The notes under the pieces were generated by a model. It had not been told where the DNA came from. It saw only the letters and a program-made list of their open reading frames with translations, and did no database searches. The position numbers and the translations under genes were made by a program. A stretch of DNA of 64,000 nucleotides from Nemertoderma westbladi. Taxonomy: Eukaryota; Animalia; Xenacoelomorpha. The DNA is taken from NCBI GenBank assembly GCA_032718475.1, contig JAUCBJ010000699.1:62001-126000 (forward strand). Reading direction: 5' to 3'. Each line of letters opens with the position of its first letter. Position 1 is the stretch's first letter. Positions 6,065 to 64,000 of this stretch are shown here, piece by piece.

Positions 6065-6520
6065 GATTTGCTGAGAACTTTCTAAGTCAGCTGTCAGAAT
6101 TTTGGTCTTTTTGGTGTTAACAAAAATACCAACACTAGAAGCAGCCTGTTCTAATAAGCTGAAGAGCCGTTCCCTCTAGTGATTCTGAGAGTACTCCTAA
6201 GTTATCAGCAAAGTTATCAGTTTGGTACAGCACTTGGCAGGATTTCCTTGACTTCTGGAGCCAGGTGGACTATCGCCAATGGGAATATCTGGGAGTATAG
6301 ATTCAGAGACACTTTTACTTCTATAAAGTTATCAGGCAATACCCTGTCATTATTGAGAAGCTTTTCAAAGTGGGCCTTCCAACCATTGAGGCGATCGGCT
6401 GGTGATTCAGCCTTAACCTTGGTGGTTGGTTGGCTTTTCCGCCCAGTAAGCAAGTTGATCGATTTCCATGCCTGGGATGATTGCCTGCTGTCGTCTGCAT
6501 CATTGATGGCATCAACAATG
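6065..6520 (-). pseudogene. Internally deleted fragment of the RTE-like LINE family of 7072-8567, opposite orientation
   Basis: 6065-6260 is reverse-complement homologous to ~7690-7870. The upstream part encodes WKAHFEKLLN, typical of the EN-RT linker. Confidence 0.65.
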
Positions 6521-7071: not shown

Positions 7072-8567
7072 AATTTAAAGCTCATCTATCCCATCATAGT
7101 AGACATGTACCGTACAACAAGAGTCCCACAAGAAATGAAAACAAATAAGTTGGTGCCAGTTCCCAAGAAGGGCAACCTAACACTCTATGGTTCTTTTCGG
7201 GGAATCTCATTGATCTCGATTGCTCCAAAGCTATACAAGCTATTCCTTTAAATCGCATCAGGGATCCCATTGAGAGACTGCTCCGTGGAAATCAGAATGG
7301 GTTCCGTAAAGGTCGTGGGACCATGGAGCCCATTTTGGCACTTAGAAGGATAATTGAAGAGTTATCAAAAAAGAAAGACAGGCATCTGGCTGTTATCTTT
7401 GTTGACTTCTTCAAGGCCTTTGATTCAGTCTCTCGCTCACGTATGTTCATCATACTTTCATTATATGGGATTCCTGATGAAATTATTGCAGCAATCAGAT
7501 CAGTATACGATGGTTCGACAACATTTGTGTCTACTGTTGACGGTGACACAGAACAATTTGAAGTGTTATGGGGCGTCCTCCAAGGAGACACACTTGCACC
7601 ATTCTTGTTCATAATTGTTGTTGACTATGTTCTACGCATGTCCTTAGATCATTATAATGATGATGGGGTGATGATAACTCCACCTACTGGCTCCAGAAGT
7701 CGAGGAAATCCTGCCAAGTACCTAACTGATCTAGACTTTGCTGATGACTTAGGAGTACGCTCTCAGAATCACTAGAGGGAGCCCAATGGCTCCTCTGCTC
7801 ATTAGAACATGCTGCTTCTAGTGTTGGTCTTTTTATTAAATCCAGAAAGACCAAAATTTTGACAGTTAACTTTGAAAATCCACAGCAAGTCTCTGATCGG
7901 ATGAGCATAAGCTCAAAAGATGGTAGGCTTGAGCATGTGGATGACTTCTGTTACCTGGGATCATGGATACGGAAGTCAGGTGAGGACCTTCGAATACGTA
8001 AGGGAAAGGCATGGGCAGCCTTGAATAGGCTTTCCAGGATTTGGAAGTCACCGAGAATTAATCGGAAACTTAAGGTGCGGTTATTTAGAGCAGCAGTAGT
8101 TCCAGTACTCCTCTATGGGAGTGCATGCTGGGCTCTAACTGCTGAGGACACCAAATCTCTGGACGGCACATTCACAAGAATGCTACGCCGGGTTCATTGT
8201 GTCAAGTTCAATGCACACATCTCCAACCAGACACTATATAACATTGGAGGTGTCTCATTGGTTCCCCCAAGCTTGACACTAGAACAAAATCGCCTCCGCT
8301 TTGCAGGACATTGCTTTCGCCGTGAGGACCAGCCAGTGCATAATCTTGTACTTTGGCAGCCTCTTGGAGTGAATAAGCATGGTGAACAGCCCATGACTTT
8401 CTTGAGACGCATCTTAAAGGACACTGGCCTTGAAGATGCGAATGATCTAGCAAATCTCATGGGTGATAGGGAGTTGTGGCGGTGCAATTTTGTCGATAAG
8501 CCGGCACAGCATTCTTAAAAATGCAGCTGCAATGCAGCATGCCGATCCTAGTAGTAGTAGTAGTAGT
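7072..8567 (+). mobile_element. 5'-truncated RTE-like LINE with (TAG)n tail and 12-bp target-site duplication
   Basis: Frameshifted RT (QNGFR, FVDFFKAFDSV, GVLQGDTLAPFLF, LDFADD, FCYLGS, RLRFAGH). (TAG)n tail at ~8549-8567. TSD AGTATGATATCT at 7060-7071 and 8568-8579. Confidence 0.9.
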
Positions 8568-11985: not shown

Positions 11986-12394
11986 GTATGATAGTAGGCG
12001 CATTAAAAGGCGAAACTGGAATCAAATTTCCCGCGTGAGCCAATCACCTATTAAATATGTACTCCATGAACCCGCAACCCGCTTGTCTTTTCTTCTACCT
12101 TCAACCCCCCCCCCCCCCCCCCCTCCCTGCTCCCTCCACATACACCCTTAGTTACAGCAATTATAAACAATGGTTAATAATCATTATTGGGTATTCTTTG
12201 AGGTAGAGGATTATAAATGCTGCTACTGCAGCTGTGAATTTTTAAATTGAATATTGATTTTAATGGAGTACTGGTATACATTATTGAATAAACCTCAGAT
12301 AATCCACCACGCCTATAAAAATTACACAACTTACTTTACGTTAACATCCTTTCGTATAAACTAAAATTCGTAAACTAATTTATAAACTAAAAAT

Positions 12395-13621
12395 ATGCAC
12401 AACCTAAGCATCTGTAAAAATAATAAAACTTTATTTACTGTGTTTACTTTCGTGAGTGTGATACTTCTACTGTACCTGGTACAGAGGGGTGGTATAGTTC
12501 GAAATGGACTCCCTGTTTACAGAGAATTAGCGGTGATAAACGTGACGCAGAGATTGATAGAACAAATGGACGACAGAATATCTAACTCTGTTCAACCAAA
12601 TGGAACGAATGCGACTATTTCGCACGGAAAATGCCAGAAGAGAATGAATATTTTTTACCTTAAAACCCACAAAACCGGGTCCCGTACCACAGTTACCATG
12701 TTTATTAATCACGCTATCGCTAACAATCTCACACCCGCGTTGTCTGACAAAGAATCCTTCGTAAAACGGGGAGATAGGCAATGGAGTTACTGGTGGGGCC
12801 AACATTTAAACAAGTTCACACGACATCCTAATGTTTCATTTGTCCACGGGCGGTTTAACATTGATGTTAAAAGGCTGATGCCACGAGATACCATCTATAT
12901 TGTCGGCATCAGAGATCCTTCGAGACTTATCAAATCGTACATCACTTATTATCGTCCTTACTCTTACTTCCGAGACGAAAATCATGTTGTACTCAAAAAT
13001 TCGAATGATATTTATGAATCCTTCATAAATAACCCAAATGGTACGACGTTTAATAGACGTTCTTTTATAAATCCTTTGCTATACGAATTTGGCTACGATA
13101 TAGATTCACCCAATGAGAGTGATTATGATGGTATTATAAAAGAGATTGATGAGGAATTTGATTTGGTGATTTTATTGGAATATTTTGACGAATCGATGAT
13201 TTTGTTGAAAAATTTAATGTGTTGGGAATTTGAAGACGTCGTTTATAGGAGTAAAGGTGTGCAAAACGAAAAACTCTATATTTTTGATGCAGATAAACTC
13301 AGAAATATAAATATTGGGGATTGGAAACTTTACAAACACTTCAATAAAACACTTTGGGATAAAATAGAAATGTTTGGTTTTGAGAGAATGGAGAGAGATT
13401 TAAAAGTATTTAGAGAAATGAAACGGCGAATAAATTCCGACTGTTTAGATAAAAACTCAATTAAAATTAAAACGAATAAAGTAAAGTGTTTTATACTTTC
13501 GTGTGGTGACGAGAATATAACTGTCGGAATGTTAATTGATCTTACAAATAAGCGCAAAGATTCTAGTAAGGCTGTAGTTTTGTACCGCGAGGCAGCTATA
13601 AAAGATACCTTTATATGTTAA
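12395..13621 (+). CDS. Galactose-3-O-sulfotransferase (GAL3ST family)-like Golgi type II membrane sulfotransferase, 408 aa, uninterrupted CDS
   Basis: N-terminal TM segment, 5'-PSB FYLKTHKTGSRT, 3'-PB IRDPSRLIKSYITYY, family motifs EFDLVILLEYFDESMILLKNLMCW and DWKLYKHFNKTLW. Confidence 0.9.
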   Translation: MHNLSICKNNKTLFTVFTFVSVILLLYLVQRGGIVRNGLPVYRELAVINVTQRLIEQMDDRISNSVQPNGTNATISHGKCQKRMNIFYLKTHKTGSRTTVTMFINHAIANNLTPALSDKESFVKRGDRQWSYWWGQHLNKFTRHPNVSFVHGRFNIDVKRLMPRDTIYIVGIRDPSRLIKSYITYYRPYSYFRDENHVVLKNSNDIYESFINNPNGTTFNRRSFINPLLYEFGYDIDSPNESDYDGIIKEIDEEFDLVILLEYFDESMILLKNLMCWEFEDVVYRSKGVQNEKLYIFDADKLRNINIGDWKLYKHFNKTLWDKIEMFGFERMERDLKVFREMKRRINSDCLDKNSIKIKTNKVKCFILSCGDENITVGMLIDLTNKRKDSSKAVVLYREAAIKDTFIC

Positions 13622-14319: not shown

Positions 14320-15975
14320 TCATCAACTGCAAAGACGCTGCTCACGGGGGATACGCGACCAACGTCCAAGCTCGATTTGAAGTCTATGGGAGCGGAGTCT
14401 ATAACGAGTAACGCAGTTACTCTCAAACAATCTGGAATATAACCGGCACTAGAAGAGTAAATATTACATATGACAAGGTCAGGATTGACTTATAAGTATG
14501 TAGCAAATTTCGATTTTGTTATTACGAATCTCGATTTTAATATTATTGCAACTAGTTTTAATACTGCACTCAGATTTAAGAATGGAATCTAGGTATTTAA
14601 TACACGGTGTTTTACTAGTCCTACACATATTTAAAACGAAGAATAAGGGGTCATCCTTGTTCCAAATACGAGTCTGCCGTTTAAATGATCTAATAATAGC
14701 ATCATTAATTAACGAATTTACATCAGGCAGACCTAATTCGGCAAAACATAAAAGATTAGGTGTCGTGATTCTGACATTGAGCAAAATCTTAACCAATCTA
14801 ATATACAAGTCATTTATTGGTTTTCTACTGCACGGAGAGAGCCATGTGTTACAAGAATACAGTATTGAATGTACCGACATACTGACTAACAGGGGGTTGT
14901 TATGTATATATTAACTTTAAAGTAAACACTAGTAAACATTAATTATTTTTGTCCTAGTCCTACCTCTTTCACAGCGACAAAAATGTCATATATTTTCTTA
15001 TAGAATATAGGCTTAGTTTTTGTGCAGTTTATTACCGGTATCATTTAGTTTATGGCGGGTAGGTTTTAGGGTTGGGTTTGCGATACATACCTGTATGTGG
15101 AGCATGGTATATTATATATTTTGTTTGTGTTTGTTGTTTGTGTCCTTTGAAGGCCCTAGGGGCTGAGAAGTATTTTGGGCTTAATGTCCTGATTCTATAT
15201 TTTTTTTGTAGTTTAAGGGGTGTAAGACTCTAGTGTTTACTTTAAAGTTAATATAAGAATACAGTATAATATATACAGTAATATTGCACTATGGAACACT
15301 ATTAACTTTAAGAAAAATGGCATGTTACAATTAGTGGCGCAGAAGATGTCGAATTTACGCACGTAACATCGCATATAACATACTTTTGCATGCATCTTAA
15401 TAGCTGTAGCAATTTTACCGTCCTCAGTAATAATCGCACCGAGATATACGTATAATTTTGCATTCTTAACTACTGTATCTTCGGGGCAATTTATCTCTTT
15501 CACTACCATTTATAACCATAAATTTTGTTTTACTAACATGAATAACCATGTTATGAGAAGTACAAAATTGTAACAAGATTTCTAATTTATTTTGACATTG
15601 TTCACGTGATGATGCGAAAATCGCAGTATCGTCCATAAACATAATGGCGTGAAGTGAGCTAAGGTAATCATTACTATAACATAGTTCGTTAAAAATTGTT
15701 ATCAATGCATCAATATATAACGTAAAGATAAATAAACTAGAGGGCGCACCTTGCCTTACTCCGGCCTCCATACGAATGTCGATGCAATTTAATTTCAAAA
15801 ATGTTTGACTATAAACAGCTTTAATTGCGTTAATCATATTTTTACCGCACCCAAGTGCTAATAGTTTGGTAATCAATTTAAATCTTGACACTCGGTCGAA
15901 GGCCTTAGAAAAATCGACGAAAATTATATACAATTTATGTTTATTAGTAATTGCATAGTCGATTAACATGCGTAA
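14320..15975 (-). pseudogene. Degenerate LINE (RTEX-like, tentative) RT and C-terminal region, interrupted by an insertion
   Basis: FVDFSKAFDRV, GVRQGAPSS, FMDDT, YVYLGA, LLNVRITTPN..FAELG, and SHRLQIELGRWSRIPREQRLC read on the minus strand near 14330-14400. Confidence 0.75.
14866..15254. mobile_element. 389-bp insertion with 13-bp TSD and an internal/terminal inverted repeat
   Basis: AAGAATACAGTAT at 14853-14865 and 15255-15267. ATATTAACTTTAAAGTAAACACTAG (~14908-14932) is inverted at ~15230-15254. Confidence 0.65.
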
Positions 15976-15997
15976 TACACCTACATATTGCTCCTAC

Positions 15998-26532: not shown

Positions 26533-27077
26533 TGTGACGGGATCCAGGAAGGATCCCGGTTTATCCGGTTTGTCAATTCACGCGAACCCGCCGTGTGTGA
26601 AAGATAAAAGAGTTTACGTTGTTCGTTGTATATAATATTCGGGATATGTATAGTATAGATATAGATAATGGATAAGATAAATATTGTTGTACGCGGAAGG
26701 CGGGAAACGGTAATTTAAATCCCGGTACTTCCCTAGCTAAACTATTGCTACTGTAACACCAATAACACTGAGATAACTGAATGAGATGATTACTGCCAAC
26801 TGGTTATATTGCACGGGTTGGCCTTGTTACTGTACCTAACCGATGCCTTTTCCCCCCTCTGATTGGCTAATGTCCCTATTGGCGCCCTTTGGAGTGTTTC
26901 CGTTCACTCCAGCTATTCTCTCTCGGTTAGGGGTTTGGCCCCTGACCCTCATTGTGTGTTTCTCCTTCCCACTTTGTTGGGGTGACACGAGTTGTTAGTT
27001 ACCCAATCTCGTGGCCCCCAATATTGCTTAACGGTTGACTTTATGGGTTTGTGTTAGCGGAATTGAATAAGCTAACA
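26533..27077 (-). repeat. 3' LTR (545 bp)
   Basis: TGTGAC...GCTAACA, direct repeat of 39985-40528. Confidence 0.97.
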
Positions 27078-27087
27078 CTCCCCCCCA
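27078..27087 (-). other. Polypurine tract (plus-strand primer)
   Basis: Minus strand TGGGGGGGAG immediately abuts the 3' LTR. Confidence 0.85.
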
Positions 27088-27779
27088 TGCTATCTTCCCG
27101 GTGAGAAGATAGCATCCACCTCAAGTGCGCTACAATTCCGCTGGATCCCGATCTATTATCGGGTGTGGGGTGGAACTATTTTCTTTCGGAGCCGGCTTTC
27201 CAGGCCGCTCCCTATGGGTATGATATCGCTACCCGTTTCGCCTGGCGTCCCATGTCGGGCCGATCGTGCGCTCCTCACATGACTTTTGTTTCCCCAACAC
27301 TTCGCCACTTTAACTCTACTCTGTTCTCACCCTGACTCTCCTCTACTTCTCCTCACTACCGCTCTAACTCTCGGACTTCCCTGTCCCTCACTCAGCCTCT
27401 TATTCCTCCCACACACTTGAATTGCATTCGCACTCTCTCTGCACTCTGCACTATCACCTCTTACTCGACCTCCCTTTGACTACCCCATCCCTTCTTACGA
27501 ATCTCACTCCCCCTTTGTGCCGTCGCACTCAAGAAATGTGAAGTCGTCTGGTGTCTCGTCCATAGTACCATAGTCAGTTAGCCCCCCAGTCCCAGTAGCT
27601 AATTGAGAAAGGTTGAATGACTATAGTACTTACTTCGAACGTATATTTCATTGCTAAACTACTGATTACTACGTACATACATATAATTGCACTTATTTAA
27701 TTATTTGCATCAGTTTGAATTTGTACTTAATAGTTCGTACGTCCCACGTGGCGCCTTCCAGGCGTACCACATTGAAGTC

Positions 27780-30816: not shown

Positions 30817-31420
30817 TTACTAATCGGTACTACGTACCCTCTTACTACTCTCTAACTAACTAACGGTACTACGTACCCTCTAACTCTAACTCTACTAACG
30901 GTACTGCATACCCTCTTACTACTCTCTAACTCCACTAACGGTACTACGTACCCTCTTACTACTCTTCCAACTCTACTAACGGTACTACGTACCCTCTTAC
31001 TACTCTCTAACTCCACTAATGGTACTACGTACCCTCTTACTACTCTTCCAACTCTACTAACTGTACTATGTACCCTCTTACTACTCTTCCAACTCTACTA
31101 ATGGTACTACGTACCCTCTTACTACTCTTCCAACTCTACTAACGGTACTACGTACCCTCTTACTACTCTTCCAACTCTACTAACGGTACTACGTACCCTC
31201 TTACTACTCTTCCAACTCTACTAACGGTACTACGTACCCTCTTACTACTCTTCCAACTCTACTAACGGTACTACGTACCCTCTTACTAACCTCTAACTCT
31301 ACTAACGGTACTACGTACCTTCTAACTGACTAACTAACTAACTAACTAACTCTAGGTACTACGTACCTTCTAACCGACTAACTCTAGGTACCACGTACCT
31401 TCTAACTAACTCCTAACTAA
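30817..31420. repeat. Internal 41-bp tandem array (~15 hairpin-bearing units) between pol and the accessory ORF
   Basis: Unit ACTAACGGTACTACGTACCCTCTTACTACTCTTCCAACTCT with the palindrome GGTAC-TAC-GTACC, degenerate at both edges. Confidence 0.93.
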
Positions 31421-31538: not shown

Positions 31539-34500
31539 CTAAGGTGCCCCTTCTAATAGACAGCATTTCCCTACAGCTCTCCTGTAGGTTTTTCTGTCTT
31601 TCGCACCGATCTTTCCACCTATCCGCACTTCTACCGATCGGACATCGGAGTAAGTGCCTACGACTCTCGCCAACCGCCACTGGTTGTTGATGATAGTATC
31701 ATCCGTAACGATTACGAGATCTCCCTCTCTTAACTCCCTATTTGACTTCCTCCACTTGCTTCTTCTGTGAAGCGTGGGTAGGTATTCCTCAACCCACCTC
31801 CTCCAATACTCTGCGCTTATTGCTTTAGCGACCTTCCAACTCTGGCGGGAATGTATGTCATCTGGGTCTACACCCCGCATATCGATGGTCGCTGGCCTTT
31901 CCATTAGAAAATGGCTGGGTGTCAGCACATCTAATGACTCAGGGTCATCATTCTCCGGATATAGCGGTCTGCTATTAATGATCCCCTCGCACTTCGCAAG
32001 CACTGTCCTTAAGACGTCCTCAGTGACCATGTGGGTGTTCATTAGCTTCGTCATAAGACGCTTTGAACTGCCCACCAGTCTCTCGACGCATCCTAGTGTA
32101 TGTGGTGCATACGGCGTCCTTCTCTCCCACTTTACTTGTCGTCGTCTCATGGCCGCCCTGACTTCCTCCCCTTCCAAGATGTCCAAGGCCTCTGCCATCT
32201 CGTTCTCTGCTCCCACAAAGTTGGTTCCGCTGTCGGAGTACATTACTGCGATCGTCCCACCTTTGCGGTCTCTGAATCTTTCTAATGCATTAATAAATGC
32301 TGATGCGGTTGCATCTTGGGCGAGTTCTATCCCTACCGCCCGCGTGTTGTTACATACGAAGATAATACCGTAGCGTTTCTCCGTGTGCCGCATCACCTTG
32401 ATCTTTATCGGCCCGAACATGTCCACACCGCAATGTGTAAATGGCGGGTCGTGCTGTCTTACTCTACTCGCTGGTAGTGGCGCCATCTCTTGTATGGCTC
32501 GCTCCTTCTTCGCTCGTCGGCAGGTCTGGCATTGCCCCACTACCGCTTTTACCTTCTTCCTCAACTGCTTGACCCAAAAGGTCCTCCTTATCTCCGTGAG
32601 AGTTCGGTTGGTGCCCCCGTGCAATATCGACTTATGGGAGTCCCAGATAATCTGGTGGACTATTGGCGATCCTGTGGGAATGATGATGGGTTTCGGTGGT
32701 ACGACTATGCTGTTGTTGTATCCCACCCTAGAATTCATTACTAGAATCCCGTCGTCATTAAGTTGTGGCGACAGCGTGATCAGCTCGCTGTCCCGTCGAA
32801 GGTGCTGTTGGTTACCGACGCGTTCCACCTCGTCGCCATAGTTCTTCCGTTGTTCATAGCGGATGACTGCCTTGGCCGCTCCTTCCAGATCTATGGTTGT
32901 CCTGATCTTCTTGTCTTTGCCAACTCCCGCGAGGAAATTCCCGAAGGCTCTCCAGTACGCCACTAATTTCTTGGTCTTATACCAACTAGAGCTGTAGCTG
33001 AGGAGTTTATCTGTCGGGTTATCGCACAGTTCTTCTGGTTTAGGTTGCACGTCCCTTATCTCCCTCACCATCTGGGAGTATATCTCTTCTCCCTCTGAAT
33101 CTCCCTCTTCTCCTTCTGACACTACCTCTCCTGAGTCCGGGTCCACCTTTCTCATCGGCGGCCAGGCCTCCTTGTCGCTCAGAAACTGCGGCCCGTGTTG
33201 CCACAATCCTTCCTTTTTTAAGAAAGTGTGGCGTGCCACGCCCCTTGATAACAAGTCCGCTGGGTTCTCGTCCGTTGGGCAGTAGTGCCACCTTTCCAAT
33301 TCTGTGGTCGCCCTTATCTCGTCCACCCTGTTCGCGACGAATATTGGGTATCTCGTCCTTTCGTTATGTAGCCAACCAAGCACTACCATGGAGTCCGTCC
33401 AGTAGTGTGTCTCCACTATGTTGGGAATAGTATCCACTAGGTAGGCTGTGGCTCTAACTCCTAGTCTCGCAGCTGTCAATTCTAATTTGGGAACTGATGC
33501 TGAATCTGGCGGCGTTGACTTTGCTTTGCTAAAGGCCAGTCTGGGCTTGTGAGCCCCCTCTCGTTGTACTAAATAGAGTGCCGCTCCGTACGCCTCCAAC
33601 GACGCATCGGAGAACATGTGTAGGTCCAGATTCGTCATGTTCCCATCCGGGAAATACACTCGTGGCATGTTGTATGTTCCCATCTTCTCCAAGTCTCCTG
33701 TCCACTTACTCCACTGTTTCTTGATTTCCTCTGGTACCTCTACGTCCCACTCATCCTTCAATTTGTATACTCTCTTGAGTATCTGTTTCCCCGTGACTAA
33801 TAATGGGGATGCTAGACCTAGGGGATCGTATATCCTTGCTATATACGACACATAGCCCCTCTTCGTGTGGATGTCTGCGCCCTCCTGGCTCAGCTGATAC
33901 TTCAGTTCGTCTGTCTCTCTGTTCCACACGATTCCCAATGCCTTCTGTTGAGATTCTGTTCTCTTGTTCGCCATGTCCTGCCCTTTGGCTGTTGTGGGAT
34001 TATCCATGGTCGATTCTGGTCTCTTGTCCTCTATCGCCTTGATAAATTCTTCCGAACTGGATTGGAATTTGGTCAGGTTAAAGCCGGATCCTTTTAGGAT
34101 GTCGCGAACCTCGCGCCCTGTGTCCAGTATCTCCTTAACCGTATTTCCAGACTCCATTCCGTCGTCTACGTAGAAGCCGCGTCGAATCATATCGACGGCC
34201 CTAGTGCTGTATCTATCTTCCTTCCCCTTCACCGTATCTCTCACTGCCATAGTCGTCGTAAATGAAGACGACTTGGCTCCCATATTTTGTACTACCATCT
34301 TATATGCCGGTATTATCGACGGTTCTTCCTCGCCGTTATACCATAAGAAGCGTTGACTGTCGCTATCTTCCTCCGTTACACGGACTTGGTTGAACATGCC
34401 TTCTATGTCACACGTGAAGGCGTGTTTCCCATTTCTAAATCTAAGTAGGACCTCTATCCCCGAGTTGTATATGTTTGGACCTTCTAGCAGGTAGTCGTTT

Positions 34501-36932
34501 AAGCATTTTCCGTTGGTCTTTGCCGATGCGTCAACTACCATCCGCAGTTTACCTTTCTTTGGGTCTAAAGCCACGTGGAGTGGCAGGTAATATGTCCTGT
34601 CCGTGTTTGGTTCGTCGACCGGTAACTCCACGGCCCATCCTTTCTCGACGTACTTCTTAATCGTTCTGTGGATGTACTCATTCTTCTCGGGGCTCCGTTT
34701 TAGTGTTTGTTTCAGCTTGCGGAGTCTCGTGAGTACCATCCCTCTATTATCGGGCAGTGGTAACTTCGGTAGTTTCCATACCATTCCTACGGTGTACCGC
34801 CCCTCGTCGCACTTCATAGACTCCTCTACGCTCTGCTGAGCCTGTTTGTCTTCCACCGAGGTCCCGACCCCGGTCTCCTTTAATCCTTCAAAATCCTGTC
34901 TGAGCAGTCTTTTAAGTTGCTCCTCTGCTCTCTCATCACTCATTTCCTGCATAGTTCCCGCGAACATGCATCCTGATGTCTCCGACATCCTAAATGGTAT
35001 CTTGCTCTTGATTGGGCCACTTAGCGTCCACCCGAATGGTGTCAGTATTGCCACCGGGTCAGACTGCTTGTCTTCGCCGAAGACCGTTTGCATTCTTTCG
35101 TGGGCCGTTGGGCAGTCCATTCCTACTATGATGGATACCTTCCTAACGTCCACATCTGGGATTGAGAAGTCAATATCGTCCAGAAATTTATATTGTTCGA
35201 CCTCGATGTTGGTTGGCCGTCTGGCATTGATGTTTATTGACTCTATCACTTGGATGGGGTCGATGCTAGCCCCATAGTCGCATCCTGGTGCTATTGCTGC
35301 GATGGTGCACCGTCCGGTTCTCATCTCCAGGACCTCATCTTTGCTGGAGATGGTTGTTACCGCCATTCTGCTTGGCCTCGTTCTCAATCCTATTTCTTCG
35401 GCCACCCAATCCTCGACTAATGTGAAGGCAGCTCCACTATCAACCAGCATTAGTGTTGTTACTGATCGATTGCCTTCTCCAATCACTCGTACGGGTACTA
35501 CCCCAAGTAACACCGTTCCTCTCTTCTTCGCCCCTACTGTGCTCGTTGCCATCGTTTGGCCTTTCCTTTGACCGAACTTGACCGGCATCTCCTTGCATTC
35601 CCTAGCTCTATGTCCACTCATCACACATCGCGAGCAGATCTTGTTGCTCGCCGCATAATCTATCTGATCTTGCCTAGATAGCGCTTGCCAGTACCTGCAG
35701 TTCATGGTTTGATGAAGCGCATTTGTATGTAGCTGGCATTTGCTCTTTGGGTCGTAGCCCTCCTTATACAGTGCATCGCGTATCGCAGCTGCGTTTGTAC
35801 CAAAGTCCCTACTATTCTTATTGTTTGGATTCGGCCTACTGGACGTACTGGGGTTATATTTATTCGTGTTGTTATTGTTCCCCTGTCCGTTCCATGGTGT
35901 GGTCTTACTTTCGGCTACCTGTGGACTTGCAGTCCCCTGCGTCGCTGCATATGGCAGTGATTGCCTGAGCCTCGGTAATGCGTTTGATGTATTGTGCTCT
36001 GGTTTCGGTCTATGGTAATCCGTCTTCGGTCCCTTCCCCAGGCTATCTTCGCTATAGACTGGGTCGGTTATTAGTTCAGCTTCGTAGTTTAAGAAGCTTG
36101 ACATTTCTTCTAAACCCGGTTCCGCACCCTTCCTATCTCGAGTGGAGAAAGCGATTTTCCTCCACTTGTTGCGCAACCACATCGGTAGTGCCTGCGCTAT
36201 CGTGGTGATGTTGTTGGACGCATTGAGTTCGTATGGCGCGTCTAGTGTCTTTAACACGATCAGCGCCTTCTCAACCTTGTTCGCAAATGTCTTAATGCTA
36301 ACGGGATTATCCTGTAGGCCACCCGATGTTATGCCTCTCAGGGTCTGCCTGATGATCTTGGCTGGGTGTCCGTATTCCCTGTCCAGTGCCCGCCATGCTG
36401 TCGTGAAGCCGCCCTCTCTGCCCTGATATTGCCTCACGATGTCATATGCTGGGCCTCCTGTGTATACTTGCAAATACTTTAGGCACTCCGTCTGCGTTAA
36501 GTTCTTTGTTAGTATTTCATTGCTATACATACGCCGAAACTGGAGATATTCTTCCGGCCTACTCCCATCGAATTTGAATGGTTCCACGGGTGGTAATTCG
36601 ATCCTTGTTTTTAATGCATCGATCAATGTGGCCATCCCCATCGCCTGCGCTTCCAATGGATTCGATGGATGTTGTATAGTTCCTCCTGTTGGGTGCCGTC
36701 CGCTCGTTCTATTTTCTGCCTTTCTATGGCTTGGGTATATCATTGGGGGTAGCGGCCCCCTCCATATTTCTGTGTCACACGACCTATTTTCATCCAATGG
36801 TCTCGTTGTCCTTGCTCCTATCGGGGTATATTGTTGATATTGCGATGGGGGAATGTCACCCTGTCCCCCCCCCCCCCCCCCACCGGTATTTATGGTATTG
36901 GGGTTGATGTTAATATATTGGGGCCCATGCAT
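31539..36932 (-). CDS. pol: Bel/Pao gag-pol polyprotein (capsid-like domain, zinc knuckles, aspartic protease, RT, RNase H, integrase), 1797 aa
   Basis: FKFDGS..EYLQF (Bel/Pao gag), CSRCVMSGHRAREC, LVDSGA, FYVDD, LHMFSDAS..AYG, HHCC, GVDMFGP / SDSGTNF / VERLV, YWRRWVEEYL. Confidence 0.96.
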   Translation of the reverse strand: MHGPQYININPNTINTGGGGGGGQGDIPPSQYQQYTPIGARTTRPLDENRSCDTEIWRGPLPPMIYPSHRKAENRTSGRHPTGGTIQHPSNPLEAQAMGMATLIDALKTRIELPPVEPFKFDGSRPEEYLQFRRMYSNEILTKNLTQTECLKYLQVYTGGPAYDIVRQYQGREGGFTTAWRALDREYGHPAKIIRQTLRGITSGGLQDNPVSIKTFANKVEKALIVLKTLDAPYELNASNNITTIAQALPMWLRNKWRKIAFSTRDRKGAEPGLEEMSSFLNYEAELITDPVYSEDSLGKGPKTDYHRPKPEHNTSNALPRLRQSLPYAATQGTASPQVAESKTTPWNGQGNNNNTNKYNPSTSSRPNPNNKNSRDFGTNAAAIRDALYKEGYDPKSKCQLHTNALHQTMNCRYWQALSRQDQIDYAASNKICSRCVMSGHRARECKEMPVKFGQRKGQTMATSTVGAKKRGTVLLGVVPVRVIGEGNRSVTTLMLVDSGAAFTLVEDWVAEEIGLRTRPSRMAVTTISSKDEVLEMRTGRCTIAAIAPGCDYGASIDPIQVIESININARRPTNIEVEQYKFLDDIDFSIPDVDVRKVSIIVGMDCPTAHERMQTVFGEDKQSDPVAILTPFGWTLSGPIKSKIPFRMSETSGCMFAGTMQEMSDERAEEQLKRLLRQDFEGLKETGVGTSVEDKQAQQSVEESMKCDEGRYTVGMVWKLPKLPLPDNRGMVLTRLRKLKQTLKRSPEKNEYIHRTIKKYVEKGWAVELPVDEPNTDRTYYLPLHVALDPKKGKLRMVVDASAKTNGKCLNDYLLEGPNIYNSGIEVLLRFRNGKHAFTCDIEGMFNQVRVTEEDSDSQRFLWYNGEEEPSIIPAYKMVVQNMGAKSSSFTTTMAVRDTVKGKEDRYSTRAVDMIRRGFYVDDGMESGNTVKEILDTGREVRDILKGSGFNLTKFQSSSEEFIKAIEDKRPESTMDNPTTAKGQDMANKRTESQQKALGIVWNRETDELKYQLSQEGADIHTKRGYVSYIARIYDPLGLASPLLVTGKQILKRVYKLKDEWDVEVPEEIKKQWSKWTGDLEKMGTYNMPRVYFPDGNMTNLDLHMFSDASLEAYGAALYLVQREGAHKPRLAFSKAKSTPPDSASVPKLELTAARLGVRATAYLVDTIPNIVETHYWTDSMVVLGWLHNERTRYPIFVANRVDEIRATTELERWHYCPTDENPADLLSRGVARHTFLKKEGLWQHGPQFLSDKEAWPPMRKVDPDSGEVVSEGEEGDSEGEEIYSQMVREIRDVQPKPEELCDNPTDKLLSYSSSWYKTKKLVAYWRAFGNFLAGVGKDKKIRTTIDLEGAAKAVIRYEQRKNYGDEVERVGNQQHLRRDSELITLSPQLNDDGILVMNSRVGYNNSIVVPPKPIIIPTGSPIVHQIIWDSHKSILHGGTNRTLTEIRRTFWVKQLRKKVKAVVGQCQTCRRAKKERAIQEMAPLPASRVRQHDPPFTHCGVDMFGPIKIKVMRHTEKRYGIIFVCNNTRAVGIELAQDATASAFINALERFRDRKGGTIAVMYSDSGTNFVGAENEMAEALDILEGEEVRAAMRRRQVKWERRTPYAPHTLGCVERLVGSSKRLMTKLMNTHMVTEDVLRTVLAKCEGIINSRPLYPENDDPESLDVLTPSHFLMERPATIDMRGVDPDDIHSRQSWKVAKAISAEYWRRWVEEYLPTLHRRSKWRKSNRELREGDLVIVTDDTIINNQWRLARVVGTYSDVRSVEVRIGGKIGAKDRKTYRRAVGKCCLLEGAP

Positions 36933-39916
36933 CTATCCGCAATAATTCCCCCCTCCCCTGGGTATATGTTATATCCTTTCGTGCTGTAGTCATACTGCTG
37001 CACTGGTACCGGTATAGGCCTATCAGCTTCTGGCCTACCTGCCGGTATGTACTCCGCGACTTCCGGGTTTAATTCCGTCGTCCGCGCTATCCTATCGCCT
37101 ACATTATTCCTGTCAGCATGGCCTATGGTATATGCAGTAAGGCCTACAGTATGTCCTACAGTCTGTATGTATTGCTCGGGATCGAAGTTTATTCTTCTCG
37201 AATAATCCTCCCCGCGGTTACCGTACTCTCGATCCGTTGGTATATCCCATCGGAAAGTTTCTCTTCGACCCTCTCTACTACTCTCGTCTACGTGCCGGTA
37301 CATCGCTATCCGTCCTCGCTCTCCTGTCGTTCGCGGCGATACTTCTTCTGCTGTCTTCTCTTCTCCTCCTCTCAGTGCAATATTCCCGCTCATGAGATCT
37401 CTCGTCGACCTCCCGGTTAAACTCCACTGTTCTTCTTCCCTCTTCTGATCGGGCTCGACGCTTCGTCCGCCCTCTCGCGACATCGACCTGCTTCTCTCTG
37501 CTCGATCGCACGCCGCTGGGGATACTCGCAATCCCCCTATTACTCTCCGTCGCCGGGTGTTGCGGTTTACCTGATTCGGCCCGCGCATTATCCACTGACG
37601 GCTGTGGGACACTCTCTGCCCCCCCCCCCCCCCTTCGCCACTAATTTCTCGTTGTGGGGCTCCTGTAGCCCCCCCCCCCCACTCGCCACATATTATACCG
37701 CTACCTCTAACTTCTCTTCTACACCCCTCTCCAGTCGACACTATATTTCTACTGCGGCTGGGTTCACTTACCCCTGCCTCTCTCTCCACTACTACTTGGC
37801 CTATCGGGCCTACTCCGGGTTGGCTCAACCCCGCCACCTCCTGCCTACTAACTACGTGGCCTACCATGCCACCGTCGGGTCGACTCAACCCCGCCACCTC
37901 CTGCCTGCTAACTACGTGGCCTACCAGGCCACCGTCTGTCGGCTCATGCACGTCCGACGCGTTCGCGTTAATAGCACCTATATTAGAAACGGAATTATTT
38001 TGTTCGTTCGAAATAGAATCATTTGGATTATTTTGCGCGACTACGTTATTTGAATTATTTTGTAAATTCGGGCTTGGATTATTATTTAAATTATTTGAGT
38101 TATTATTATTTTCTAAATTTAAATTATCATTCGGATTATTTTGCACGTTTAAATCAAAATTATTATTTAGGCTATCTGTATTTAAATTCAAATTACTACT
38201 ACCAGGCAAAGTATTTCCTGCAATATAAGTTTGGTTAGGATTATCCGATACGGTACCATTAATATTAACGTCGTCTACAGTAGCATTATTATTACCCCCC
38301 CCCCCCCCCCCCCCGCCCGTACGGTCACACCAGTTTCGTGTCTGTCGTGCGGTCCCTGTAAGTGGGGTATTAATAAATGTATCCACGGCCCCTGGCTCCT
38401 CGAGAATATTCGAGCCAGCCCCGCTCTCAGATGCCCCTATCCGCGCCAGTTCTAGTTCGCGTATGCGTCTAGCCTTGTACTCTATAAGCTCCTTTTGCTC
38501 TCTTTCCATTTTTTCTCGCAAACGCTTCTCTCTTGCCATTCTCTCCTGGTCCTCCCGTGCGTTCTGGTTGGCCAGTTCCGCCTCTCTCTTAGCTCGCTCC
38601 CTTCACCTCGCCTCACGCTCTCTACGCTCACTTTCCTCTCTCGCCTCACGTTCCTTGCGTTCCTTTTCCTCTCTCGCCTCACGTTCCTTGCGTTCCTTTT
38701 CCTCTCTCGCCTCACGTTCCTTGCGTTCTGCCTCACGCTCTTTGCGTTCTGCCTCACGCTCTTTGCGTTTACTTTTCTCTCTCGCCACACGCTCCTCTTG
38801 TTCCCTCCTTTCTATTTCCTCACACTCCTTAAGGCTTTCCACGGCCTTCTCGGCCCTCTCCCTGGTTTCTCTAATCAGTACTGCTTCCCTCTCTAGTTGT
38901 ATTCTCCCCTCCTCTAACCGCCTATTTAACTCTCTCTGACCTTGTTCTATCAGGTTGAGATGGTACGTGGCATTTATCTCTCTCACCCGTCTTTCTTTCA
39001 CGGAGGATGTAGCAGACTTATCGGTTACGACGGATTCCCTCCGCCTTCCCGACCTACTAACTCTCCCCCCCTTTCCAGAACTTCCCCCGACCGACGAGAT
39101 CGAATCCTCAGGCTCAACCTCGGATTCGCCCTCCTCAGGTCTCCTCCAACCCACAAATTTTACACCCTGGGCATCGACTAAGTATGGCCCTACGTACACT
39201 GCACTAGGTTGCATACCCCTACACCGCCATAAATCACACAGTTCCTCTGCAACCCCTCTCGCTCTCTCCTTGGCCAGTTCTCTCTGCCCGAAACGCATTA
39301 GATAGCTAAAATGTCTATTCGACTCATCTAGTCCTCTCGTTAACTTCACCTCATCTATCTCCGTCCCCTTCTTGGCCTCCTTTAGTAGCTTCCGGGTCGC
39401 GTTGTAGGCCCGTCGAAGTTGATCAGAAACCCCGACGTCCTCGTTGCCGACCTCTCCTCCGTCTCTCCGGGTCCGACGTCGTACCGGCGGCCCCACCGTC
39501 GCCGTTCCGGTGGGCCGTCCGTCGCCCTCGGCCTGTAGCTGGCCAGCGACATCGGTACCGACATCTCCCCCGTCTCTCCGGGTCCGGCGTTGTACCGTCG
39601 GTCCCACCGTCGCCGTTTCGGTGGGCCGTTCGTCGCCCTCGGCCTGTGGCTGGCCGGCGACGTCGGCACGTCGACCCTCGTTCTGTGTCGACTCGTCTCC
39701 TTCTCCTTCCAACTCACCCTCTCGGTCTCTCAACTCGACTCCCCCTCCTCTCGACTCGACCTCTGGCTCCAGACGGCCCCCCTCGTCCTGAACTGCCGGA
39801 TCACCCGTTACCGATGGGTCTGGCGACGTGGGCCTATACCGCCTGGTCGCGGCCTCACGGATCGTTAGTTCTTCGTCCGGGGTCCGCGTCGGTGTCATCT
39901 CTCCTGACTGACTCAT
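36890..39916 (-). CDS. Long low-complexity/coiled-coil gag-upstream ORF (~1000 codons), interrupted by one in-frame TGA at 38603-38605
   Basis: Track ORFs 38603-39916 and 36890-38539 are in the same frame and separated only by one TGA (AGG TGA AGG GAG CGA). Contains E/R-rich coiled-coil repeats, an Asn-rich tract and Gly runs. Confidence 0.65.
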
Positions 39917-39984
39917 CTCTCTTCAATAGATTGGTGGCTGGTAGTTACTGAGTTCAACTAGGGCGGCAGCTCTGATTCAATTAC

Positions 39985-40528
39985 TGTGACGGGATCCAGG
40001 AAGGATCCCGATTTATCCGGTTTGTCAATTCACGCATCCCCGCCGTGTGTGAAAGATAAAAGAGTTTACGTTGTTCGTTGTATATAATATTCGGGATATG
40101 TATAGTATAGATATAGATAATGGATAAGATAAATATTGTTGTACGCGGAAGGCGGGAAACGGTAATTGAAATCCCGGTACTTCCCTAGCTAAACTATTGC
40201 TACTGTAACACCAATAACACTGAGATAACTGAATGAGATGATTACTGCCAACTGGTTATATTGCACGGGTTGGCCTTGTTACTGTACCTAACCGATGCCT
40301 TTTCCCCCTCTGATTGGCTAATGTCCCTATTGGCGCCCTTTGGAGTGTTTCCGTTCACTCCAGCTATTCTCTCTCGGTTAGGGGTTTGGCCCCTGACCCT
40401 CATTGTGTGTTTCTCCTTCCCACTTTGTTGGGGTGACACGAGTTGTTAGTTACCCAATCTCGTGGCCCCCAATATTGCTTAACGGTTGACTTTATGGGTT
40501 TGTGTTAGCGGAATTGAATAAGCTAACA
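39985..40528 (-). repeat. 5' LTR (544 bp)
   Basis: Direct repeat of 26533-27077. By eye it differs by ~5 substitutions and one homopolymer indel. Confidence 0.97.
40225..40335 (-). promoter_or_regulatory. Predicted LTR Pol II promoter: CCAAT boxes, TATAA (40260-40256) and overlapping Inr-like TCATTC/TCAGTT (TSS ~40234-40230)
   Basis: Minus strand reads GCCAAT...AGCCAATCAG...AATATAACC...TCTCATTCAGTTAT, with TATA-to-Inr spacing of 26-30 nt. Confidence 0.55.
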
Positions 40529-41951: not shown

Positions 41952-43163
41952 TTATAACTTTGCTTTAGTTTCTGGCTTCGCTAATAGCGGTGAAAATTTA
42001 AAATTTGGATCAGTAACAGCTGGCCTCTGGTACCGAAACCCAGTAATATCCCATCGAGTCATCCCATCTAGCGACAAATCCGCGCAAATTTTACCCAAAA
42101 CAGAGGCAAACTTGTAGGCATGACCAGCGCCGCAGCATACAATAACCTCTGGATGACCAATAGAGGCGAGGCTATCCACCACAAATTCGCGATCTCTTGT
42201 TACTGTGTAGAGACACGTCTTGGAATATAGAATATCTCCAAGAGACCCTGGTATTACCTCTGAAAGGAACTTAACGCACGCATCCAACCTCACCTGGTCC
42301 ACATCAAATGTTCTCGTATCAGCAGTGGTTGGAGCTCGACAATAATCGATACCAACTTTAGTACCACTGTTCCCATGAATAGGAAGGCCGTAGATATCAT
42401 ACTTATCAGCATGATAGATGTAGCAAGGAAACCGTTCCTTCGTGAAGTCTTTGATATTCGGAGTTGCAAAGTAATGAACTTGTTCTTGAGATACGACAAC
42501 GGGAATGTTTGCTCCAAATTGATTTATTACCTGATTCACCCATGCCCCGGAAGTTACAATTACCTTCCTTGCAAAAAAATCACCCTTTGTTGTTGTAACA
42601 CATGTATAATGGCCAAATGATTTGCAGTGGATAATCTTTGCTTCTTGCACTATATGAGCGCCATGTTTCCGCGACAACTGAATATGAACAGCATTGGCCA
42701 ATGCTGCATCAACTAGCCCACCTTCAGGGTCAAAATGAGCCAAGTGTTCTCCAACTAACTTAAATTGAGGAAACTTCTCCATCATATCTTGAGTATCCAG
42801 TTGATAACAAGTATTTCCTGTTTCTCGCATAGCCATCATGTAATCAGCTGCCACATGTTCTCTACCACTACCTTTCCTTGCTATGTCTACTGCCCCTGTT
42901 TTATATACCAACTGTAAGCCACTTTCTGCTTCAACATGCTCCCAACATTGGTAGGCCCCCGCAGCTAGACGGCAGTATTTACCATCATGGTATAGGTAAC
43001 GAATGATTCTGGATTCATCCTGCGATCCTCCATTATGATGACCAAGTTTGAATTGTTCCAGGCCGATGACATTTTTACCAAGTCGCTGTGATAACCAGTA
43101 GAGGGTGGAACTGCCAATACCTCCAAGGCCAATAACCAAACATTTGTAAATGGTTTCAGACAT
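41952..43163 (-). CDS. Monomeric sarcosine oxidase / N-methyltryptophan oxidase / PIPOX-family flavoprotein with PTS1 (AKL), 403 aa, uninterrupted CDS
   Basis: FAD-binding VIGLGGIGS, GGSQDESRIIR, covalent-flavin Cys motif KTCLYT, GHAYKFASVLG, C-terminal KAKL. Confidence 0.9.
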   Translation of the reverse strand: MSETIYKCLVIGLGGIGSSTLYWLSQRLGKNVIGLEQFKLGHHNGGSQDESRIIRYLYHDGKYCRLAAGAYQCWEHVEAESGLQLVYKTGAVDIARKGSGREHVAADYMMAMRETGNTCYQLDTQDMMEKFPQFKLVGEHLAHFDPEGGLVDAALANAVHIQLSRKHGAHIVQEAKIIHCKSFGHYTCVTTTKGDFFARKVIVTSGAWVNQVINQFGANIPVVVSQEQVHYFATPNIKDFTKERFPCYIYHADKYDIYGLPIHGNSGTKVGIDYCRAPTTADTRTFDVDQVRLDACVKFLSEVIPGSLGDILYSKTCLYTVTRDREFVVDSLASIGHPEVIVCCGAGHAYKFASVLGKICADLSLDGMTRWDITGFRYQRPAVTDPNFKFSPLLAKPETKAKL

Positions 43164-43514
43164 ATCTTATATATGTTGTTACTGAATATAAGAAGAAATA
43201 TTTAACCTTATTGTATAGTAGATATATGTCTATAAATTATTGATATGGTCCACCTAAATGGTTTAAATATGTGAAGATCTATTTTATGTTAAATACGCAA
43301 ATACTTATAGAATAGTATTTGATAGTATTTGATAAATTAATGATACCATTACATACTGTAGATGGATAGAGTAAGATCAGCAATTCCACAGTATCCTGTG
43401 AGTTTTGTTCATTGTATTTGAAAGCAAAGCCCACACTATAACTGTATAGTTTTGTATTATTTTCATTTGTAATATTTAATAAACTGAAATTGTAGTTTCC
43501 ATAACAGTAGGATC

Positions 43515-63500: not shown

Positions 63501-64000
63501 ATTACCTAAAACTTTATCTATTAACGAAGCCTAATTCAAAGTCAAAGTATTCACCGCCATTACCTAAAACTTTATCTATTAACGAAGCCAAAGTATTCAC
63601 ATACCATTACCTAAAACTTTATCTATTAATGAAGCCTAATTCAAAGTCAAAGTATTCACCACCATTACCTAAAACTTTATCTATTAACGAAGCCAAAGTA
63701 TTCACCGCCATTACCTAAAACTTTATCTATTAACGAAGCCAAAGTATTCACATACCATTACCTAAAACTTTATCTATTAATGAAGCCTAATTCAAAGTCA
63801 AAGTATTCACCGCCATTACCTAAAACTTCCTCTATTAACGAAGCCTAATTCAAAGTCAAAGTATTCACCACCATTACCTAAAACTTCCTCTATTAACGAA
63901 GCCTAATTCAAAGTCAAAGTATTCACTGCCTTTACCTAAAACTTTATCTATTAACGAAGCCAAAGTATTCACATACCATTACCTAAAACTTTATCTATTA
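48560..64000. repeat. Large 58-bp satellite array (>15 kb, runs off the window) with 57-, 46- and 47-bp variants and higher-order repeats
   Basis: Unit (A/G)CCATTACCTAAAACTT(T/C)ATCTATTAACGAAGCCTAATTCAAAGTCAAAGTATTCACC. Short variants lack 12 bp (TAATTCAAAGTC). Confidence 0.98.

Follow-up and report, generated by a model that had tools for sequence, protein, structure and literature searches.

An LTR retrotransposon on the minus strand of the window (i.e., the whole stretch of DNA analysed, 64,000 nucleotides) raises the question of how its reverse transcription is primed. The initial annotation had found no tRNA-type primer-binding site (PBS) behind its 5′ LTR; it had suggested that the predicted 5′ end of the element's own transcript pairs with the PBS position, as in Tf1, and that an extra nuclease could be linked to this. 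Our analysis suggests that the idea of self-priming was right and the partner site wrong: a segment inside the LTR, 40170-40162, is likely a better partner than the predicted 5′ end.

A BEL/Pao Element without a tRNA-Type Primer-Binding Site

The element, an LTR retrotransposon of the BEL/Pao superfamily, occupies positions 40528-26533 (13,996 bp, ~14 kb). Its main features, all on the minus strand, are as follows:

39985-40528, minus strand: 5′ LTR, 544 bp, TG...CA, from self-BLAST and from LTR ends and differences
26533-27077, minus strand: 3′ LTR, with one substitution within the proposed primer segment
40529-40533, with its other copy at 26532-26528, minus strand: 5-bp target-site duplication AATTA, flanking both LTRs
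38603-39922, minus strand: N-terminal gag-region frame, 439 aa, no Pfam match, in-frame stop at its end
36890-38602, minus strand: second gag-region frame, 570 aa, in the same phase as the first, no Pfam match
31539-36932, minus strand: BEL/Pao gag-pol, 1797 aa
27780-30344, minus strand: ORF3, ~854 aa, three CCHC-type knuckles, N-terminal part a possible DEDDy 3′-5′ exonuclease
27078-27115, minus strand: polypurine tract, preceded by a 13-bp hairpin
39976-39984, minus strand: PBS position GTAATTGAA, abutting the LTR, no TGG

The two LTRs are 98.9% identical by self-BLAST (five substitutions and one indel), so the insertion is young. The gag-region frames are split by an in-frame stop and differ in phase from pol. 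Gag-pol contains DUF1759, protease, reverse transcriptase (RT, with YVDD), Peptidase_A17 (the Pao RNase H region), integrase zinc finger and DUF5641 domains in a gypsy-like order, and the closest proteins among the matches listed (at least 120) were BEL/Pao polyproteins with 32-37% identity, all with PF05380. By its domain set and order, its TG...CA LTRs, its target duplication and its polypurine tract, this is a genuine BEL/Pao element. Pfam detected no chromodomain, and Pol is of the BEL/Pao type, unlike the Ty3/gypsy chromovirus Pol of the Tf1/sushi group. Named BEL/Pao clades include Sinbad and Suzu. A quick RT/RNase H tree (70 rows) contains no named BEL/Pao reference elements and can neither separate one origin from several nor place the window element, whose Pol formed a long branch (2.8, at most 38% identity) of unsure position.

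Several repeats lie within the element. About 1000 codons of the gag region (36890-39922, minus strand), upstream of the conserved capsid domain, are of low complexity and contain 111-, 60- and 33-bp repeats. Between pol and ORF3 (30818-31418) there is a 41-bp tandem array of 12.7 copies together with a 32-bp repeat, and a G-run just past the pol stop looks like a leftover polypurine tract. The hairpin at 27087-27115 directly precedes the polypurine tract, and one relative (L001) has an inverted repeat at the same place, near 6430-6455. Elsewhere in the window, a 58-bp satellite array runs from 48400 to the window end at 64000, while 704-2875, 7149-8518, 15466-15993, 12386-13621 and 41952-43166 include further reverse-transcriptase fragments and two single-frame host genes, a galactose-3-O-sulfotransferase and a sarcosine oxidase-like gene. 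The neighbouring host gene is nearest to marine-invertebrate sarcosine oxidases, at 50-54%.

Immediately after the 5′ LTR comes GTAATTGAATCAGAG. As originally reported, there is no TGG from 39984 to 39915, i.e., up to the first ATG at 39916. No tRNA gene was found within the 64-kb window and no tRNA match in the element, for which Rfam returned two weak, sub-threshold snoRNA matches.

An Internal LTR Segment Is Complementary in Register to the PBS Position and Leader

The letters and coordinates of the three LTR matches described previously were all correct on recheck. Positions 40234-40225 form 10 pairs with the PBS position, including two G-U pairs; 40170-40162 is its perfect complement over nine Watson-Crick pairs; and the third, partial match near the LTR start corresponds to 40519-40512, with eight pairs. 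The last of these was rejected as a primer source, because it lies upstream of the TATA box and would be absent from the 5′ transcript. The remaining features needed here are:

40225-40234, minus strand: site first proposed as primer, 10 pairs with two G-U, judged secondary
40227-40260, minus strand: predicted start region, with TATAA (40260-40256) and the initiator-like TCATTC (A at 40234) and TCAGTT (A at 40230)
40162-40170, minus strand: proposed self-primer 3′ end TTCAATTAC, nine Watson-Crick pairs with the PBS, predicted cut after 40162
40183-40195, minus strand: upstream arm of a 13-pair anchor helix, in register, two G-U
39951-39963, minus strand: leader arm of the anchor helix, downstream of the PBS

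The initial annotation cautioned that short AT-rich matches can occur by chance. Each match alone is only modest when judged by 5000 dinucleotide shuffles of the LTR: 10 nt with at most two G-U pairs arose anywhere in the LTR in 3.1% of shuffles, and nine Watson-Crick pairs in 1.3%.

In the Tf1-like form first proposed, transcription would start at 40234 and the first ~10 nt would serve as primer. Its 10 pairs are contiguous up to the LTR edge, and such a match fell inside a 17-nt window at the guessed start in only 0.08% of the 5000 shuffles. However, the pair at the priming end would be a G-U, the duplex energy is just −7.1 kcal/mol, and the fold that contains it lies 11.8 kcal/mol above the best one. 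Initiators are typically spaced about 30 nt from the TATA box, and the canonical-looking TCAGTT, overlooked earlier, has its A at 40230, exactly 30 nt from TATAA; a start there would leave a mere 6 nt, and six pairs, of the site. Together with the variation and the relatives described below, this makes priming by the first 10 nt from 40234 quite improbable.

The preferred partner, 40170-40162, behaves differently. When its register (40162 opposite 39984) is continued past a loose middle, pairing resumes up to 40195/39951, so that 26 of the 34 positions are paired, with 23 Watson-Crick pairs. No other ungapped register in the LTR is as good, and none of 3000 shuffles matched its score, at a length picked after the extension had been seen. 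The duplex energy of the 34-nt register is −30.2 kcal/mol, as against −7.1 for the 10-mer, and forcing the 9-bp helix costs 4.8 kcal/mol above the best fold, as against 11.8. The PBS position also scored higher with its own LTR than with any of 36 foreign LTRs (36/36). The 9-nt core is shorter than that of every scored relative (10-15 nt). In the 3′ LTR, the substitution at the equivalent of 40168 disrupts this core; it is absent among the 40 of 64 family variants listed. An intron in this LTR was considered and rejected: the element strand has no GT(A/G)AG donor, and the best complement is contiguous. The window element has no poly(A)-type signal downstream of the predicted cut.

Variation within the Family

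Related copies were collected as Logan contigs from four runs, representing at most three samples, in which depths do not equal copy numbers. The family is large and variable. Among the 40 of 64 variants listed, none fell in the PBS position, and the only one within 40159-40178 was at 40166, where pairing is kept as G-U. The G-U pair of this copy at 39955 would be A-U with the letter most common in the family, which makes up 82-100% of the summed depth across the four runs; that letter improves the anchor helix. Contigs frequently diverge from the window right behind 40233, so that the 5′ end first taken as primer is variable in the family, although some copies have a G inserted behind 40233 (element strand) with which a G-U pair would still be possible.

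These observations bear on the simplest alternative, that the matches arose by chance in AT-rich DNA and that the PBS position is a decayed tRNA site. Single short matches do turn up in 1-3% of shuffles, and the gag region of this copy does contain an in-frame stop. Against this, the near-identity of the LTRs marks a young insertion, the variants listed leave the PBS position intact, the 34-nt register exceeds all 3000 shuffles, and the own LTR surpasses every foreign one. We regard this alternative as largely refuted and very improbable.

Relatives without TGG Keep the Complementarity with Different Letters

Relatives were sought in metagenome contigs, where 408 stretches were confirmed and the best 80 of them yielded 79 BEL/Pao loci. 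No relative came from two scans of viral contigs. We scored 36 loci, comprising 27 with a readable LTR and no TGG, three of TGG type, and six whose LTR was incomplete or rearranged. The other 43 of the 79 were excluded because they nearly duplicate scored families, lack the LTR-PBS junction or, in L005, L008 and L021, have no LTR or none with a clear end; this sorting was only partly done base by base.

All 27 non-TGG relatives have a complement of 10-15 nt between their own LTR and a site beginning 0-6 nt past the LTR end. In 21 of them the complement appears only once a GT-AG intron is removed, the match then spanning the joint, with the end of one exon followed by three to seven letters from the start of the next; in the other six it is contiguous. 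The partner lies inside the LTR and ends in AC (19/27) or AT (6/27), as 40170-40162 does. The PBS 9-mers themselves are diverse (25 distinct in 27 relatives, beginning with GT in 19 and AT in six), so the complementarity is kept while the letters differ. When each PBS was paired with the LTRs of other relatives (n = 702), the mean score was 7.0 and values of at least 10 occurred in 4.3%; none of 100,000 permutations reached the sum of the own pairs. Decoy joints with non-splice dinucleotides never gave the best match. The three TGG relatives had scores of 4.5-5.5 and no own-LTR complement (0/3). Scores of 4.5-8.5 came from the remaining six loci, namely L066, whose 5′ LTR is rearranged, and five whose LTRs are incomplete. 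Self-priming in place of a tRNA-type PBS, as suggested from the window alone, is made likely by this 27/27 against 0/3 distribution. A TGG site in three scored relatives, and its absence from 27, also indicates that a tRNA-type PBS is not universal in BEL/Pao.

In nine relatives the LTR end was fixed by comparing two copies, and all nine scored 10-15; in the other 18 of 27 it was placed by eye, often with the match already seen. The figure of 27 overstates the number of independent cases because it includes close kin (L036/L050/L037, L069/L070 and L022/L044). No LTR similarity was found between the window element and the relatives, and, given its long-branch Pol, homology of the sites between them rests on position and pattern rather than alignment. 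Contiguous forms are scattered among spliced ones in the quick tree, four changes being needed; L064 (contiguous) is sister to L017 (spliced), with an identical primer end. Of the 22 relatives that were folded, 14 showed the PBS helix with an ensemble probability of at least 0.7, and 16 had a poly(A)-type signal downstream of the predicted cut.

The relatives also bear on a start at 40234. In L001 the TATA box is 36 nt before the splice donor, which would place the primer at the very 5′ end. In four others, however, the nearest TATA box is 138-144 nt upstream of the partner, which is therefore not 5′-terminal, and in general the partner is internal to the LTR and mostly reached across the intron.

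Some loci had unusual structures. L029 (494-962) has two alternative acceptors with one primer end, and L065 (580-960) and L046 (6341-6759) each have a second donor upstream in the LTR. In L019 (1-13142), BEL/Pao sequence is arranged in tandem and the same LTR start occurs three times; this resembles the tandem Tf elements reported earlier (PMC11042837), but could also be an assembly effect. In L048 (9196/15681) both LTR copies end in TA instead of CA, with a target duplication present.

RNA Folding and a PBS Look-Alike in U5

Two further features lie in U5:

40025-40033, minus strand: PBS look-alike, which sequesters 40170-40162 in the minimum-energy fold
39990-40010, minus strand: 8-bp hairpin, 5 nt upstream of the PBS, z −2.4

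The PBS helix of this copy is outside the best fold because the look-alike captures the primer segment; its ensemble probability is 0.002, at +4.8 kcal/mol, and the helix with 40234-40225 is unpopulated too. When the helix with 40170-40162 was forced, at that same cost over the minimum, the fold contained an adjacent helix just 3′ of the cut together with the U5 hairpin. These adjacent helices recall the three-duplex structure described for Tf1 in a preprint (bioRxiv 10.1101/2022.12.06.519325). The variants at 40166 and 40028 share one pair of the competing U5 helix, and could compensate that helix rather than the PBS helix.

Look-alikes that can pair with the primer segment also occur ~25-95 nt before the LTR end in L036, L045, L029, L073, L070, L064, L041 and L014. 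Over 23 elements, look-alikes of the PBS in the own U5 were enriched (sum 152.5 against a permutation mean of 129.8, p = 3e-5, with composition and kinship uncontrolled), which hints at a switch. The look-alike may be such a switch, or a shield for the 3′ LTR copy.

A further alternative is a pairing between LTR and leader that is real but regulatory (in splicing, packaging, dimerisation or a translation switch), with an unrecognised host RNA, e.g., a half-tRNA, as primer. The segment of this copy does favour the U5 look-alike, such look-alikes are enriched, and half-tRNA priming occurs in Copia lineages (PMC6317226). Nevertheless, the paired site is exactly at the PBS position, the 25 different 9-mers of the 27 relatives each match their own LTR, which one set of host primers is unlikely to track, and the complement is missing where a TGG site exists. 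A purely regulatory role is in our judgement rather unlikely.

A Proposed Mechanism of Self-Priming

Given the anatomy of the element, the in-register complementarity, its recurrence with different letters in relatives and its absence where TGG is present, we consider it quite likely that this element, which lacks a tRNA site, primes reverse transcription with its own RNA, 40195-40162 folding onto 39984-39951 with a cut after 40162. As read from the sequence, transcription would start near 40230, and the LTR segment 40195-40162 would pair with the PBS and leader (39984-39951). The primer would then be a capped 5′ fragment of ~70 nt, held by 9 + 13 pairs. Cleavage behind 40162 would free the 3′ end that primes; as in Tf1, the enzyme would probably be the element's RNase H. 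Minus-strand strong-stop DNA would copy U5 back to 40161 and transfer to the 3′ LTR, which would provide the whole sequence 5′ of the cut.

In most relatives, the primer end would arise only on splicing of the intron in the 5′ LTR. The intron would be spliced from the 5′ LTR copy and inherited via the 3′ copy, so that strong-stop transfer to the 3′ LTR would explain its persistence in the LTR. Splicing of the 3′ copy would give intron-less forms like the present element, which we infer to be the intron-less form of a system with a splice-built primer. With moderate confidence we extend this to a broad part of BEL/Pao, in which tRNA priming would have been replaced by a self-primer assembled by the spliceosome, the intron being removed from the 5′ LTR copy and kept in the 3′ copy. 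The window element would be an intron-less, long-branch descendant, whose ~70-nt primer on an extended duplex toggles between U5 decoy and PBS.

ORF3 and the Proposed Link to a Nuclease

The N-terminal part of ORF3 is possibly a DEDDy 3′-5′ exonuclease. The lead came from Atlas features (0.93), PF01612 being present on 50% of that cluster. No homologues were found among longer proteins, 1.84 billion representatives, Pfam or PDB sequences, and a single-sequence structure model had a pLDDT of 32. The suggested link between the extra nuclease and self-priming was not supported. In a tblastn search against the 79 relative loci, ORF3 had no match, and the distance from the pol match to the 3′ LTR motif was 31-543 nt in 25 of the 28 loci scored for it (the contigs of the other three end sooner), which leaves no room for ORF3 there. 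As no relative has ORF3, a role in priming was rejected as unnecessary.

Comparison with Known Systems

According to the ICTV, the PBS of Belpaoviridae is 18 nt long and binds host tRNA-Arg or tRNA-Gly, and their genomes measure 4.2-10 kb (PMC8742986). The window element resembles them in the gag-pol domain set and order, in its TG...CA LTRs of 0.5 kb and in its polypurine tract; unlike them, it has no tRNA PBS and an ORF3 without homologues, which brings it to 14 kb, above the range given. The Sinbad paper (PMC554778) and a BEL/Pao survey (PMC3118150) did not mention tRNA or priming in a word look-up, and the accessible parts of PMC3601003, PMC4558846, PMC6934838 and PMC12440569 were uninformative on how BEL/Pao elements are primed. 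Searches of the open literature showed no account of BEL/Pao elements that prime themselves or build a primer by splicing, although one may exist in subscription journals, Repbase Reports or supplements, and a full-text literature search with short Tf1-like motifs gave unrelated matches only.

Like Juno and Vesta of bdelloids, which have a DEDDy ORF3 (PMC5408684), the element has an additional ORF placed after pol and before the 3′ LTR, and its product may belong to their nuclease class. The accessible text presents Juno and Vesta as rotifer lineages, not as BEL/Pao, and describes no link to priming; the nuclease call here is a lead from Atlas.

Self-priming has been described for Tf1/sushi elements; for Tj1, Tcn1 and TAR Copia elements it is a proposal (PMC4600332, PMC6317226, bioRxiv 10.1101/2022.12.06.519325 and PMC11042837). 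For the plant TAR Copia elements (Houba, Osr-1) and Tcn1 it was likewise predicted from sequence, outside Tf1/sushi, which shows repeated origin; these are Copia or chromovirus elements, and the available portion of the source describes no splice-built primer (PMC6317226).

If our reading is true, self-priming extends to a third LTR superfamily, and most families would need host splicing before they can be reverse transcribed. It would provide exact, testable junctions and cut sites, and account for BEL/Pao elements without a findable PBS. It also predicts repeated loss of the LTR intron, this element being one product, and BEL/Pao elements would be freed from tRNA supply and from silencing by 3′ tRNA fragments.

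The closest parallels are with Tf1, Tf2 and Tj1, and with Tf1/sushi in general, which likewise have no tRNA PBS, a PBS position that pairs with the RNA of their own LTR, and possible flanking helices. In Tf1, RNase H is described as freeing the primer by a cut between bases 11 and 12 (PMC7175516). The Tf1 primer is the 5′-terminal ~11 nt of the mRNA (its first 11 nt), whereas here the better PBS partner lies ~60-70 nt inside the transcript, counted from the predicted start, and is predicted to end a ~70-nt fragment that is held by a second, 13-bp anchor. Again unlike Tf1, the primer of most BEL/Pao relatives is predicted to be assembled across a spliced intron. Tf1/sushi elements are Ty3/gypsy chromoviruses, and the window element belongs to another superfamily, BEL/Pao. 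It probably primes like Tf1, yet outside the Tf1/sushi group, with an internal segment that in most relatives would be built by splicing.
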